From a virus: a DNA stretch of 44,739 nucleotides. Numbering within the stretch: position 1 is the first letter of the stretch; each line of letters opens with the position of its first letter. Under the pieces are notes generated by a model that was not told the origin of the DNA, ran no database searches, and was given only the letters and a program-made list of their open reading frames with translations. The position numbers and the translations under genes were made by a program. Shown here one piece after another: positions 34,197-39,887 of the stretch. The stretch lies in UHGV virus genome UHGV-0135379; one strand, given 5' to 3'.

Positions 34197-36535
34197 TATT
34201 TGAACCCCGGCGCATTTCTTGTGGCCTTGCGGGCCTTGCTAATCTTACTGTTACTGTTCTGCAAAGAGGCAGCCACTTGCTCCTCGATGATGATACGCAA
34301 ACGGCCTTCATCATCTTGCTCAGTGGATACGTTGCCTATTTGAGAACTCGTGTTATTTACGATAGTAACATTAGATGGGCCGGAAGAAGACCCGTTTTGA
34401 CCCATAATTTCTTTCATCTGCTGCGCGGTGCGCACACGTGATGCACCAGCCGGCATGATAACTTCTGGTTTACCGCGCTCGGCGATGGTGGAAGCCTGTC
34501 CCGCAGATAACTGACCGCCCTGTTCACGCGCGGACCTGATAGCGGAAACCTGAGCCATACCTGCACCAACGGCAGCGGCAGCGGCTACAGGGGCCAGGAA
34601 CGGACCAACTACAGGGATAGCCGCCGTGGACTTGTAAGCCTCGATAGCTGCGGTGTACGTGGCTATGGTGGCCTGTACGATAGCGAATGCCTTATACGCA
34701 CCAGAAGCCTCGCCCAACGCAGACCCGATGTTTGACGCCATGTTACCGAAGGCGGTTGCCGTTGCGTCGGCTCGCTTGGTTGCGTACTGCTCGTTGATGG
34801 CGTTAAGCGCGGCCTGATACTGCTTCTCGCTAATAAGACCCTGTTCACGGTACTTATCGGCTACTGCCAGTTTCTGCTGTTCCTGAATATCCAGAAGCTC
34901 AAGCTCGGTGGCGTTCTGACCCATAATCTGAGCCATGAAATCCTCGCCTTTCTGCTGATTCTCCTGGGCCTCCTTCCTTTTCTTATCCAGTTCTTCCTGG
35001 CGGGCCTGTTCCGCGGATAACATAATCTGCGTCTTGGCGTTTTCGTACTGTTGGTCGCTAAGAAGCTTATTGCTATAGAAGTCCTGCAACTTAGACAGTT
35101 GCTCTTCCTGGTTAGCTTCTATTTTCTGAAATACGTCATCATTAAGATGGATTGACTGATAGTAGAAGTCTTCCGCCGCTTTTTTCTGGCGCTCGAACGC
35201 GTCCGCCGCTTTCTTAGCGGCTTTTGCGGCTGACCCGTCATCGTCAGAACCGCCGCCAGTTCCGGTTACCTTAAATTTGTTTAACCCCTCAGCTTTTGCG
35301 GACTCCTTATCGATGTCATACGCCGCGCGTTTTAACGCTACAATATCCTGTTGAGCTTCTACCTGTTCGCGGAAACTTTTACGCGTAACGTCGGTGACAT
35401 CGCGCTGGGTATCCAAAGCCAGGCCAAGCTGGAAGTTGATATTTTTAGCTACGTCTACTGATTCCCCGGGGGTAAAAGCGGCTCGTACAAGACGGCCCGC
35501 GTCCTGCGCGCCTTTAACCATATCTTCAAAGAATCTCTCCATCGCGGTGAACTCTTCCGCGATGAAGTCAAGCGCATCGGCGGCGGATTCAGCGATGGTA
35601 GTAGCCGTTTGTTCTCCGCTATCCGTAATACTCTTGCTGCTGAAATCCCACAGTTCATTAAGCCCGTTGATGGCATCGCCAACAAAGCCAAACGCAGCGT
35701 CGAATGACATCTCGATAGCGCTTCCTACTTCCGACGCGATGTTCCCCCACATCTGCATTTCAGCGGCTAATTCACCGGAAGCAACAGACGCGTTTAATTC
35801 CTGAATCAAGTCATCGATATACCTGATAGGTTCAGCAAGTGCGCCAACATCAAGACTGGTGGCAAGCGTCATTTTTAGCTGCGACCATGAGTCACTGGCA
35901 CTCGCGATAGCGCCGTTAAGGGTGTTGGCCTGGTCAGCCATAGCCCCCGCAAAATTTACGTTACCAATGTTAAGTAAATACTGCTCAATATCGGCAGCGC
36001 TTTTCTTAACTACGGTTGTCGTTCCCTGGAACGTAAACTCTACGTCGGTTTTGTTCTGCTTGGCTTTGATGCCGAATTCTTTGAGGCGTTCGAACTCAAA
36101 CGTACTGGCGTCGGCTACCGCCTCAATCATCTGATTAAGGTCCTTACCCATAGCCGATGCGGTATTGCCGTAGGACCGCAACGCCTCCTCGGATGGGGTA
36201 AGGCCAAGGGCCACCAGCTTACGGAAGCCTTCCACCGCCTGCTCCAGTCCGTATGGGGTGTCGCGTGCAAAATCTTGCAGGATACTTAGCGCCTGTTTAG
36301 CACCTTGGGTACTTCCGGTTAAGGTCTTCAAACTGGCGGACATCTTGTCCAGTTGCCGCTGTGAGTCAACTAGTTCTTGGGCGGCTTTATACGCGGTAGC
36401 CGCTACGATAGAAGCGAGGCCTGCTACGGCGGCCCCCGCTACTTTTGCGGACTTTGAAAGATTATCAAGACGGTCTGATGTGGCTTTCGCGCCTTGCTCT
36501 GATACTTTTACGACTAAACTAGCTACATCAGCCAT
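34196..36535 (-). CDS. Tail tape measure protein
   Basis: 779 aa, Ala/Gln/Glu-rich helical composition, follows G/GT chaperones. Confidence 0.85.
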   Translation of the reverse strand: MADVASLVVKVSEQGAKATSDRLDNLSKSAKVAGAAVAGLASIVAATAYKAAQELVDSQRQLDKMSASLKTLTGSTQGAKQALSILQDFARDTPYGLEQAVEGFRKLVALGLTPSEEALRSYGNTASAMGKDLNQMIEAVADASTFEFERLKEFGIKAKQNKTDVEFTFQGTTTVVKKSAADIEQYLLNIGNVNFAGAMADQANTLNGAIASASDSWSQLKMTLATSLDVGALAEPIRYIDDLIQELNASVASGELAAEMQMWGNIASEVGSAIEMSFDAAFGFVGDAINGLNELWDFSSKSITDSGEQTATTIAESAADALDFIAEEFTAMERFFEDMVKGAQDAGRLVRAAFTPGESVDVAKNINFQLGLALDTQRDVTDVTRKSFREQVEAQQDIVALKRAAYDIDKESAKAEGLNKFKVTGTGGGSDDDGSAAKAAKKAADAFERQKKAAEDFYYQSIHLNDDVFQKIEANQEEQLSKLQDFYSNKLLSDQQYENAKTQIMLSAEQARQEELDKKRKEAQENQQKGEDFMAQIMGQNATELELLDIQEQQKLAVADKYREQGLISEKQYQAALNAINEQYATKRADATATAFGNMASNIGSALGEASGAYKAFAIVQATIATYTAAIEAYKSTAAIPVVGPFLAPVAAAAAVGAGMAQVSAIRSAREQGGQLSAGQASTIAERGKPEVIMPAGASRVRTAQQMKEIMGQNGSSSGPSNVTIVNNTSSQIGNVSTEQDDEGRLRIIIEEQVAASLQNSNSKISKARKATRNAPGFK

Positions 36536-36887
36536 CGTTTCTACCCTCGAAAATAGCGTCTAAGCTCATGATGATGTCAGATTCGAACATCCCTATATTC
36601 TGGCCTGAAACGGTGCTGTACGCCACTAAATCTGACCATCGTAATTGCTCGCGCGGGTACATCTTGATGCCGTCGTCGTCCACTCGGCGGGTGAATTTAA
36701 TTTCCCTGTACTTCTCAAATGTGGTTAGTAGTTCAGGGGGGCATTCCGGCCCAGTGGCCTGCGTTGCGTCCGGCGCGTCTTGCATAACCCCCATAGCAAT
36801 TAGCGCGGCTTTATGCCCATCGGCGATACTGTCAAATTCCCGCCGTTTGTGGCGGGTTATGAAGTTCCAACGGGCGAACTGGAGCAA
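36528..36887 (-). CDS. Tail assembly chaperone T segment (-1 frame relative to G; probably expressed as a G-T fusion)
   Basis: -1 frame ORF overlapping the last codons of G, no ATG of its own (TTG only), overlaps tape measure start. Confidence 0.5.
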   Translation of the reverse strand: MLQFARWNFITRHKRREFDSIADGHKAALIAMGVMQDAPDATQATGPECPPELLTTFEKYREIKFTRRVDDDGIKMYPREQLRWSDLVAYSTVSGQNIGMFESDIIMSLDAIFEGRNDG

Positions 36888-36892
36888 CGCGT

Positions 36893-37309
36893 CTACTTTT
36901 CCTGTAGCTGGTGCAGTTGTTCGTTATGAAACACAACAACAAGTTCCGCGAGTCGTTTATATTGCGTCAGGAGTGTGTTCAGATTCTCTTTATTGAATTC
37001 GTCGTCAAGGCTCCACCCGTTAACCAATTCAACCGCTAACTGACGGTTAAGGTCCGTCGCCGCGTCTTCCATCTTCAGGTTGTATTCAGAGAAATCTTTC
37101 ATCTCTTCGCACTTATCACGAAGCGGTTTTAATTTCCCTAACACTGCCCGGTATGCAAGGGTGAACGCGCGCATAGCCTTAACGGCAACGTCTGCCTCAG
37201 GAGAAACAACATTAAGCCATTCCCCGGAATCGGTACCGTCTTTTAATGGTATCGGCATACGTGCACCCTTTTCAGCTTCAGCTTCGTAATAAAAATCAGA
37301 AAGTTTCAT
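36893..37309 (-). CDS. Tail assembly chaperone (lambda G-like)
   Basis: 138 aa acidic protein between major tail and tape measure genes; ATG with AAGGA RBS. Confidence 0.6.
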   Translation of the reverse strand: MKLSDFYYEAEAEKGARMPIPLKDGTDSGEWLNVVSPEADVAVKAMRAFTLAYRAVLGKLKPLRDKCEEMKDFSEYNLKMEDAATDLNRQLAVELVNGWSLDDEFNKENLNTLLTQYKRLAELVVVFHNEQLHQLQEK

Positions 37310-37416
37310 TCTTTAATCCTTTGGTTAAGAGGTTACTGGTTAAAGGAAATGCGCCAGACGGGAACCACCCGCTTTTCGTGTGCGACACTAGGCGCAAAAT
37401 TATTCTAACATACTAC

Positions 37417-37445: not shown

Positions 37446-37487
37446 TCACTTACACCAACGATGTTATCTCAAATCAGGAGTTATGTT

Positions 37488-37679
37488 ATGACCGGTATCG
37501 CTATGTTCTTTTTAATTATTGTTGTAGGCGTTTATTTTATCCCGTTTTTTGTGGCCCATATGCGAAACCATAAAGCAAAGCTAGCGATATTCATGGCTAA
37601 CTTATTTCTCGGGTGGGTTCTGTTGCCGTGGGTATTCATTTTAATCTGGGCTTGTAACTCGAACGTGAAAGAGAAGTAG
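37488..37679 (+). CDS. Small 2-TM membrane protein resembling superinfection-immunity (Imm-type) proteins
   Basis: 63 aa from ATG at 37488 (AGGAG RBS); motif FIPFFVAHMRNH...LGW...ILIWAC; AT-rich; track ORF starts at 37461. Confidence 0.55.
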   Translation: MTGIAMFFLIIVVGVYFIPFFVAHMRNHKAKLAIFMANLFLGWVLLPWVFILIWACNSNVKEK

Positions 37680-37717
37680 GCTACTATAAGACAAATCCTA
37701 AACACGAGGAAGTAAGC

Positions 37718-38848
37718 ATGGCCCGGAAGAAAATAACCGACGAACAGTTACAGGAAGAATTGAACGCCGGAATGAAGAATGTAGACATCGCCCGTAAATA
37801 CGGCATCTCAGACCGCGTAATTCGTATCCGTAAAGCGAAGCTGGCTAAGAAAGGTGTAGGTCACGGACGTGATGTTAGCCACCTTGTCCCGGACGGCTAT
37901 AAGATTAAAGGAACGTCGTCACTGGTGGATGAGTTCGGCAACACTAAGTTGCAATGGGTTAAGACCGACACTGACGCCGAACGTCAGGTTGAATTGATGA
38001 AAGCCGTGATCGAAGGCATGAAATCGGAGATTACGCCCGTTGCACCTGTTAAAGCCGTTCGTGCCAAACGGGACGATAAGCTGCTCAATCTTTACACTGT
38101 ATCCGATTTCCATCTCGGTATGCTGGCCTGGGCCGACGAGAGCGGCGACGACTGGGACATGAAGATTGCGGAAGACCTGTTCTCTCGTTGGTTCGATGCA
38201 GCATTCCAGAAAGCACCGGATGCCGGTACTGGGGTTATCAATCTTCTTGGCGACTTAGCGCACTTCGATAGTCTTGATGCCGTTACGCCCGCAAGCGGTC
38301 ATGTCCTTGACGCTGACACGCGCTATCAGAAACTGGTCCGTTACATGATTCGTATGGTCCGCCGTGTCGTTGATATGGCGTTGGTTAAGCATAAAAATGT
38401 TCGCTTGCTTATCGTGCAAGGGAATCACGACGAATCGGGTATGATTTGGTTGGCTGAGATGTTCAGTACGCTGTACGACAATGAGCCGCGCGTGTTCGTC
38501 GATACGTCGCCGGATGTTTACAAGATGGTGCAACACGGCAAAACGACGCTGTTCTTCCATCACGGGCATAAAGCACGATTCGACGCTATCGAACCGGTTA
38601 TGATTGCCAAGTTCCGTAAAGCGTTCGGCGAGAGTGTTTACAGCTACGCCCACGTAGGCCATCTGCACCACCAGAAGATTGTAGAAAGCCGTAACATGAT
38701 TGTTGAGCAACACCGCACCTTAGCGGCTAAAGACGCCTACGCCTCTCGCGGCGGATGGATGTCGGGCCGCAGTGCAAATGTAATTACTTATAGCGCCGAA
38801 TATGGCGAGGTCGCACGTTTAACTATTTCACCGGAGATGCTGGGATGA
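37718..38848 (+). CDS. Calcineurin-like metallophosphoesterase with N-terminal HTH-like domain
   Basis: Motifs DFHLG, GDLAHFD, QGNHDE, HHGH, GHLHH; ATG with GAGGAAG RBS. Confidence 0.75.
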   Translation: MARKKITDEQLQEELNAGMKNVDIARKYGISDRVIRIRKAKLAKKGVGHGRDVSHLVPDGYKIKGTSSLVDEFGNTKLQWVKTDTDAERQVELMKAVIEGMKSEITPVAPVKAVRAKRDDKLLNLYTVSDFHLGMLAWADESGDDWDMKIAEDLFSRWFDAAFQKAPDAGTGVINLLGDLAHFDSLDAVTPASGHVLDADTRYQKLVRYMIRMVRRVVDMALVKHKNVRLLIVQGNHDESGMIWLAEMFSTLYDNEPRVFVDTSPDVYKMVQHGKTTLFFHHGHKARFDAIEPVMIAKFRKAFGESVYSYAHVGHLHHQKIVESRNMIVEQHRTLAAKDAYASRGGWMSGRSANVITYSAEYGEVARLTISPEMLG

Positions 38849-39333
38849 AAGATATTGTAATTTTCGATTTAGACGGGACATTGGCCGACGGTACCCATCG
38901 CTTACACCTGTTACCAAAAGATAACTACGGAGAAACGTGGGCGTGGAAGCCATTTAACATGGCCTGCAAAGATGACGCTCCGATATACGACAATATCCAT
39001 TTGTGTAGCGTACTGTGGCATTCCGGACTTACTATAATTATCCTTACCGGGCGAAGTGATGACGCTGAGGAGGAGACTCGCGAATGGTTACGAGAGAATA
39101 ACGTTAGGTTTGACACGCTAATCATGCGCAGCAAACACGACAACAGAAAAGACATCGTAATTAAAGAAGAGGTGTTGCGTGCTTTCGGACTGGAAAGAAT
39201 CTTGTGTGCGTTCGACGACTCTCCAGCGGTAATAAAGCATTTCCGTGACCTCGGCATAACCGCACACGCAGTTACCGAATACGACTGTAACGGGAACTCT
39301 ACACACTTAAAACCACACGGGAGCGATAAATAA
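38845..39333 (+). CDS. HAD-superfamily phosphatase resembling the 3'-phosphatase domain of T4 polynucleotide kinase-phosphatase
   Basis: HAD motifs FDLDGTL, ILTGRS, RKDIVIKEE, FDDSP in the same order and spacing as remembered for T4 Pnkp. Confidence 0.75.
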   Translation: MKDIVIFDLDGTLADGTHRLHLLPKDNYGETWAWKPFNMACKDDAPIYDNIHLCSVLWHSGLTIIILTGRSDDAEEETREWLRENNVRFDTLIMRSKHDNRKDIVIKEEVLRAFGLERILCAFDDSPAVIKHFRDLGITAHAVTEYDCNGNSTHLKPHGSDK

Positions 39334-39887
39334 TGGCTAAGGTAATTATTCTTAATGGCCCTGCGGGTTGCGGGAAAGACACGCTTGCTATGGCGCTGGT
39401 AGAAATGGGCTTTGCGAAAGGAACTACCAGTTTCAAGAATCCAATGTTCAATATTGCTTTGGCAGCGTTAGGCCAGGATGCTTACCACGAATTTCTCGAC
39501 GGCTACGACGACCGGGCGCGGAAAGAAAAACCCGAGGGTTTTCTTAATGGGTTGTCCCGCCGCCGGTTAATGATTGCCATTTCTGAGCAATTCATTAAAC
39601 CGGTATTCGGCGATGATTATTTCGGTAAGTATCTTGCTGAAAACTTGCCTGACGGCGACGAAGTTTTTGTAGTGTCCGATGGTGGATTCGCCAGTGAAGT
39701 TGCCCCTATCGTCGCCGCGGGGCATGACGTGCGAATCGTCCGCCTCCATCGTGACGGCTATACGTTCATCTGCGATAGCCGTGGCTATCTGTACGATGTT
39801 AGTGGTGTAAAAGATTACGACACCTACATCATACCGGGTGACGTTAAATCGAACGTTATAGACATTGCTTTAAAATTAGGTTTGTAA
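39333..39887 (+). CDS. P-loop kinase resembling T4 gp1 deoxynucleoside monophosphate kinase
   Basis: Walker A GPAGCGKDT and RRRLM motif; ATG overlaps HAD gene stop (TAATG); terminator follows. Confidence 0.7.
   Translation: MAKVIILNGPAGCGKDTLAMALVEMGFAKGTTSFKNPMFNIALAALGQDAYHEFLDGYDDRARKEKPEGFLNGLSRRRLMIAISEQFIKPVFGDDYFGKYLAENLPDGDEVFVVSDGGFASEVAPIVAAGHDVRIVRLHRDGYTFICDSRGYLYDVSGVKDYDTYIIPGDVKSNVIDIALKLGL

Follow-up and report, generated by a model that had tools for sequence, protein, structure and literature searches.

The window, the whole 44,739-nt stretch of viral DNA analysed here (UHGV virus genome UHGV-0135379), contains a tail module on the minus strand in which the genes lie in the order tail tube, G, T (in the -1 frame) and tape measure, with tail assembly chaperone (TAC) families on both halves of the G-T pair. 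Upstream of G, the gene for the tail tube (major tail) protein occupies 41088-39916 (Pfam Phage_tube_2, E=3e-38), and the tape measure protein gene 36535-34196 (ORF list; PHROG 1538, E=2.8e-205). G runs from 37309 to 36893 and encodes a tail assembly chaperone of 138 amino acids (15.9 kDa) followed by a TAG stop codon; it is present in the ORF list and matches Pfam PF08748 Phage_TAC_4 at 32.8 bits (cut-off 21.1), as well as PHROG 15027 and PHROG 313 'tail assembly chaperone'. The T frame is open for 131 codons, from 36923 to 36528, and its translation matches Pfam PF23812 Phage_TAC_18 at 66.7 bits (cut-off 27, E=2e-18) and PHROG 4557 (E=5e-62). By these matches T is clearly coding, beyond chance. 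PHROG 15027 is a tail assembly chaperone family of 259 positions, of which G covers 1-138 and T covers 136-259. Since this family spans both G and T, fused proteins joined at the lysine must already be among deposited sequences. Sequence searches of the PDB with G and with the T profile gave no match, nor did NCBIfam.

The final codons of G are CAG (36904-36902), GAA (36901-36899) and AAG (36898-36896), followed by TAG (36895-36893); in the T frame the same region reads AAA (36899-36897), GTA (36896-36894), GAC, GCG and TTG (36887-36885). The slip site, G_GAA_AAG, is at 36896..36902 on the minus strand, with the core tetramer A_AAG at 36899-36896. The G stop (36893..36895) lies directly 3' of the slip codon and overlaps the T-frame valine codon GTA. 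Five nucleotides 3' of AAG is the hexamer GCG TTG (36885..36890), which specifies Ala-Leu in the T frame, and a possible local RNA domain, which is clade-specific (36803..36890), begins 2 nt after the G stop. The T frame is closed upstream by TAA at 36926-36924 and ends with TGA at 36530-36528; as part of a fusion, T would comprise 36528..36899. The tape measure ATG at 36535 sits within the end of T, and the overlap is ATGGCTGA (36528-36535, minus strand). A scan for promoters and terminators near the G-T junction revealed nothing relevant.

The coordinates given for G, T and the slip site in the original prediction all hold on re-checking. T had been placed in the -1 frame, open back to 36923 and overlapping the end of G, and this overlap of 31 nt is confirmed. 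T had also been described as lacking an ATG; neither ATG nor GTG occurs before T codon 42, and TTG 36887 is the sole start-like codon.

Between the tube gene and G, an opposite-strand block of four genes (37461-39887, plus strand) splits the tail module. These genes encode a small superinfection-immunity-like membrane protein, a metallophosphoesterase/exonuclease, a polynucleotide-kinase-like protein and an ATP-binding protein. The layout of the block is identical in annotated relatives.

Conservation of the junction

The window belongs to a Kagunavirus-like siphophage, and the region is 98% identical to that of Escherichia phage Golestan. Matches were obtained to 454 phage records, every one of them from E. 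coli or Salmonella phages in the Guernseyvirinae (Kagunavirus, Jerseyvirus). Loci were gathered from IMG/VR, GenBank and Logan by G- and T-based scans, and the G-T junction could be placed in 183 of those fetched (some sharing contigs); they comprise 89 distinct 180-nt contexts, with 40 haplotypes at the junction. The divergence covered extends down to 42% identity to the window for G and 43% for T.

The original prediction had proposed a comparison of slip sites in relatives, and A_AAG was found at the end of G in every one. In all 183 loci and 40 haplotypes G ends NNA AAG and T follows in the -1 frame, without exception. The penultimate G codon is GAA in most haplotypes and otherwise GCA, GTA, TCA, GGA or AAA, always ending in A. 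At the homologous position one lineage (L083, L086) has GCA AAA AAG TAG, which contains the canonical heptamer A_AAA_AAG, the dnaX/IS911 site, and another (L045) has CAG GGA AAG TAG, which contains the canonical heptamer G_GGA_AAG, the site of lambda. TAG or TAA directly follows AAG in 39 of the 40 haplotypes. The exception, L164 (IMGVR_UViG_2162886012_000023, junction near 1501), reads AAC GCA AAG TTA TAG, with the stop one codon later and a GTT valine codon; it provides a natural test case for contact between the stop and the slip codon.

Several lineages have a -1 frame that extends just 4-5 codons upstream of the slip site before it closes, which confines the shift to A_AAG; a shift elsewhere in the overlap was rejected on these grounds. 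Conservation of the T protein, as judged by tblastn and by protein alignment of relatives, begins at the slip-site lysine (residue K1), with the motif K-V-x-A-L-Y-x-F-A-x-W ... F-D-S-I-A-D-G-H. When the predicted 260-aa fusion was used as a protein query, five proteins were returned, including three distant G homologues, and the contigs that encode these three carry the junction TCG GAA AAG TAG. When genome contigs were scanned with the T alignment as a profile, a single locus came up, which is probably a contaminant; as these are virulent phages, prophage relatives are not to be expected. That locus (L103, NZ_JACVEL010000023.1) is a Jerseyvirus-like G/T/tape-measure locus with a T 85% identical, on a 13-kb scaffold of the Bacteroidota assembly 'Taishania pollutisoli', and is most likely enterobacterial phage contamination of that assembly.

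Some records have irregularities of their own. In L039 / L114 (IMGVR_UViG_638275545_000001) the G ORF ends after 37 codons and T is intact; the interruption probably reflects an indel or a sequencing error in the record. A 165-aa 'hypothetical protein' on a 1.7-kb JGI contig (P0005) has the N-terminus of the exonuclease (window 37718 ORF) fused to the C-terminal part of T, and looks like a chimeric assembly. Other Kagunaviruses (K1G, K1ind1, fFiEco02, Bas71) match positions 36400-37400 (minus strand) at 78-95% over the first 110-250 nt only, a stretch that consists of the intergenic region upstream of G and, in the longer matches, the first G codons. Beyond it, their G and T proteins are 47-55% identical to those of the window. 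Exchange of the chaperone/tape-measure module is suggested by this pattern, its breakpoint lying close to where G starts.

The terminal lysine codon of G is AAG in all 75 unique relatives; the other lysine codons of G are AAA and AAG in a ratio of 511 : 259. Synonymous variation was assessed in 68 representatives less than 97% identical to one another, over 55 well-conserved codon columns. The background synonymous sites are nearly saturated, with a mean observed/expected codon entropy of 0.81. Synonymous variation is absent from just four columns: G138 AAG, T1 AAA (which consists of the same bases), T2 GTA and T4 GCG. At T2 no valine codon other than GTA occurs in the 68 representatives, for an expected codon entropy of 1.94 bits, and T4 is GCG in 67 of them. 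Leucine T5 is only CTG (59) or TTG (9), and nearby alanine and leucine codons vary freely. The result is a conserved island of about 17 nt, A AAG TAR NN GCG YTG, amid otherwise variable sequence, and the arrangement of A_AAG with its stop is retained across the 40 haplotypes while the flanks are saturated with substitutions. Upstream, all 23 haplotypes with GAA have a G immediately before it, contributed by six different codons (CAG, TCG, TTG, CTG, ATG, GCG), and the base 5' of GCA is G, A or C.

The original prediction named independent translation of T from TTG 36887 as the alternative to a frameshift, and the relatives contradict it. T would be made alone by initiation, or by termination-reinitiation, at this codon 8 nt after the G stop, with the purine-rich GGAAAAG serving as a weak Shine-Dalgarno (SD) sequence. 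In favour of this, TTG can serve as a start and has AGGA 12 nt upstream; T is annotated from this TTG, with a ribosome-binding site, in several GenBank records; and the codon at this position is only TTG or CTG, both near-cognate starts, to the exclusion of every other leucine codon. But it is CTG, a very poor initiator, in 55 of the 75 unique relatives, and in these the first in-frame start-like codon falls 10 to >30 codons inside the best-conserved part of T. The GCA AAG and GTA AAG lineages have no SD-like sequence, and an independent start leaves both the invariance of A_AAG and the canonical heptamers at the same spot unexplained. Furthermore, the T domain of lambda functions only within gpGT (PMC5009743). 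Because TTG 36887 is CTG in most lineages, it is to be read as a leucine codon and not as a start. Separate initiation is thus a very improbable source of T, with or without GGAAAAG as an SD sequence, and any contribution from the codon at 36887 is expected to be a minor share.

The same conservation bears on transcript slippage, in which RNA polymerase, slipping on the run of A's, inserts an extra A into some transcripts and normal translation of these yields G-T. This is a known alternative route to such products (PMC5009743). The run here is too short: GGAAAAG has four A's, and the lineages with GCA AAG or GTA AAG have three. Polymerase slippage usually needs 7-9 identical bases. What is conserved, moreover, is the codon phase of A_AAG and its third-position G, features that are relevant to re-pairing of a tRNA but not to slippage of a polymerase, and this route is scarcely credible here.

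RNA structure and other candidate stimulators

There remains the question of what would stimulate a translational shift at A_AAG. A shift that is real and is driven by downstream RNA structure, the stop being adjacent merely because G ends there, finds some encouragement in the window itself. The domain at 36803..36890 starts 5 nt after AAG and has a minimum free energy of -38.1 kcal/mol, with z scores of -2.2 against dinucleotide shuffles and -1.44 against synonymous shuffles. The invariant GCG lies at its 5' edge, and in 86.8% of cells the GCGC that includes it is paired with another GCGC downstream.

Comparison among relatives argues against this explanation. RNAalifold on 24 diverse sequences gave no consensus structure (-0.25 kcal/mol). 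A long-range domain obtained by RNAalifold on six sequences was discarded after it failed in the 24-sequence run, in pair-count controls and by synonymous-shuffle z-scores: 75.9% of cells are paired in the six-sequence structure vs 74.5% in column shuffles, no covariation in it is significant, and its helix 1 has no changes on both sides of a pair. Folding energies compared with synonymous shuffles have a mean z of -0.57, with 4 of 37 below -2, and both arms of the putative helix fall in conserved Ala-Leu motifs. A shift that depends on downstream structure is therefore unlikely as an account of the family, and the fold at 36803..36890 may help frameshifting locally in the window.

Inspection of the upstream 30 nt in the aligned junctions revealed no conserved SD-like stimulator, and no conserved helix accounts for the conservation of the GCG-YTG hexamer. 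With neither a conserved structure nor an SD-like element, the efficiency of the shift would rest on a putative effect of the stop codon together with the local context. The invariant stop and the GCG-YTG hexamer are candidate stimulators. The near-invariance of the stop fits the suggestion in the original prediction that an adjacent stop may stimulate slippage; this invariance is confounded, since G must end there and T needs its valine codon.

Predicted fusion and its annotation

Gene order, domain families and above all the comparison of relatives support the reading put forward in the original prediction, a G/GT tail-chaperone -1 frameshift. We consider it probable, at roughly 0.85, that a programmed -1 shift of tRNA-Lys from AAG to AAA produces a 260-aa G-T fusion. 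A small fraction of the ribosomes on G would step back one base at the last sense codon. Peptidyl- or aminoacyl-tRNA-Lys (anticodon mnm5s2UUU) would leave AAG 36898-36896 and re-pair with AAA 36899-36897, so that base 36896 would be read twice and the next codon would be GUA in place of the UAG stop. Reading would then continue in the T frame to 36528. The predicted product is a 260-aa, 29.8 kDa fusion, ...LQEK-VDALLQFARW..., formed beside abundant 138-aa G, and its sequence at the junction (...L-Q-E-K-V-D-A-L-L-Q-F...) is the same by the P-site and the A-site route. The T domain would be expressed solely as the C-terminal half of this fusion. By analogy with lambda gpG/gpGT, G and G-T may coat the tape measure protein, with the T domain of the rare fusion recruiting the tail tube protein. 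The analysis establishes how the locus is built, which families its proteins belong to and that the signal is conserved; the occurrence of the shift itself, the ribosomal site involved, the contribution of the stop and the proportion of G to GT are inferred.

The minimal -1 site is a Z_ZZN tetramer, and in E. coli A_AAG is by far the best of these; it supports 5.6% frameshifting with the IS3 pseudoknot and about 0.15%, barely above background, with no stimulator (PMC4066793). NNA_AAG is used by IS1222 and is present in B. subtilis cdd, with an efficiency that depends on the 5' codon (PMC5009743). Routes that involve a single tRNA include P-site slippage during the wait for an A-site tRNA, and slippage of A-site tRNA-Lys aided by a wobble-prone 5' tRNA (PMC10861913).

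The signal in the window appears to be the tetramer A_AAG within the near-cognate heptamer G_GAA_AAG. Tandem slippage on a canonical X_XXY_YYZ heptamer does not describe this site, at which GAA->GGA is mismatched at the second codon position (G opposite U), and AAG->AAA re-pairing is fine. tRNA-Glu could nonetheless re-pair from GAA to GGA with the central G.U, and in lineages with C_GCA_AAG or A_GCA_AAG no P-site re-pairing is possible. The codon GCA is read by a wobble-prone cmo5U tRNA, and tRNA-Glu has a restricted-wobble U34. Together with the NNA_AAG rule (PMC5009743), the restricted wobble of tRNA-Glu means that GAA should not favour slippage, which counts against the mechanism. The invariant G 5' of GAA suggests that G_GAA_AAG may act as a near-cognate heptamer; GCA would need no such help.

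The adjacent stop probably provides the pause otherwise supplied by downstream RNA structure. We tentatively propose that a -1 shift coupled to termination may determine the G:GT ratio throughout this group; in such a shift, tRNA-Lys slips on A_AAG in the P site while UAG or UAA occupies the A site. Equally tentative is the idea that such a shift would need no RNA structure and would be tuned by the GCG-YUG hexamer together with the base that precedes the P-site codon. If this is true, the junction would be a natural, essential '-1 shifty stop', with an efficiency that follows release-factor activity and hence host physiology. In the library of papers searched there was no experimental demonstration of the G-T fusion for Guernseyvirinae, nor of an excess of G over it or of a need for both in tail assembly, and no characterisation of the GGAAAAG site.

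G is annotated as a tail assembly chaperone in Golestan, SETP7 and K1ind1, and T has been treated in several ways. The records of Golestan, Schulenburg, fEg-Eco06, SETP7 and Ent3 contain two separate genes with T from TTG, and this two-gene form is the one used throughout the clade to which the window belongs (Golestan, Schulenburg, Shashou, SETP7, Ent3). In the S4lw and SE124 records T is truncated or missing, and in those of K1ind1 and fFiEco02 there is a joined frameshift CDS. The announcement of Shashou states that there is 'no canonical slippery sequence' (PMC6776780). The exact fusion sequence of the window was absent from the protein collection searched. Because the CTG relatives have no early start codon, gene callers leave fragments of 87-119 aa, or no gene, in hundreds of contigs.

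The main value of these findings is for annotation, since T appears in most Kagunavirus and Jerseyvirus records either as a 'hypothetical protein' of its own or in truncated form, and these genera are a large group of therapeutic and biocontrol phages of E. coli and Salmonella. The shared NNA_AAG plus stop signal provides a rule for Guernseyvirinae, by which G-T is annotated as a joined CDS. The relatives also form a natural allelic series at one position, G_GAA_AAG, G_GGA_AAG, A_AAA_AAG, N_GCA_AAG and G_GTA_AAG, with one lineage in which the stop is displaced. This series could reveal the contributions of an adjacent stop and of the P-site codon to -1 slippage that proceeds without RNA structure.

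Comparison with known systems

Annotated G-T fusions are known from the phages K1ind1 (YP_009597303.1) and vB_EcoS_fFiEco02 (QNO11587.1), which belong to the same genus and have a homologous T and a G 55% and 47% identical, respectively. Their junction, ...GAA AAG TAR, is identical to that of the window. The fusions predicted for these two phages with a lysine at the junction equal the deposited YP_009597303.1 and QNO11587.1 residue for residue, which indicates that the frameshift has already been recognised in the genus.

Known A_AAG sites include G_CGA_AAG of IS1222, A_CGA_AAG of B. subtilis cdd, and IS3 (Licznar 2003 and Sharma 2014, as presented in PMC5009743 and PMC4066793). As in these, A_AAG is the sole invariant slippery element of the group, and the 5' codon varies and ends in A. 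The hosts of the group, E. coli or Salmonella, have a single tRNA-Lys (PMC5009743). The difference lies in stimulation: A_AAG/NNA_AAG sites need a pseudoknot, a hairpin or an SD-like sequence to reach a useful efficiency, whereas none is conserved in the window's group and the stop adjoins the slip codon instead. The original prediction was right that CAG-GAA-AAG-TAG is the sole slippery sequence in the overlap and departs from X_XXY_YYZ, but the site is not exotic, as it belongs to this class.

In lambda G is made in about 30:1 excess over G-T, and both are required for tail assembly. The G/GT chaperone family is defined by position, and sequence homology to lambda gpG/gpT is not required; neither G nor T has detectable similarity to the lambda proteins (BLASTP E = 5.1 and 6.4). 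The lambda G/GT frameshift was the subject of Levin, Hendrix & Casjens 1993 and Xu, Hendrix & Duda 2004, 2013 and 2014 (as reported in PMC5009743). Like lambda, the window has two ORFs between the major tail and tape-measure genes, the second in the -1 frame and lacking its own start, and a slip that ends in A_AAG read by tRNA-Lys, with no conserved RNA stimulator. G is also similar in size, 138 aa in the window and 140 aa in lambda. The slip heptamers, G_GAA_AAG in the window and G_GGA_AAG in lambda, where the site was checked directly, are one base apart. In the window the P-site codon GAA would re-pair with GGA through a middle G.U, whereas the match in lambda is full. Five sense codons separate the lambda heptamer from the G stop, which is directly adjacent in the window, and in the layout of the window the tube gene and G are set apart by a block of genes on the opposite strand. 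The G-T shifts of tailed phages are regarded as being of low efficiency and without stimulators (PMC5009743), and the family of the window agrees with this. These comparisons support the view that the site in the window is the G/GT system of long-tailed phages, real but ordinary, and non-canonical only in the narrow X_XXY_YYZ sense.
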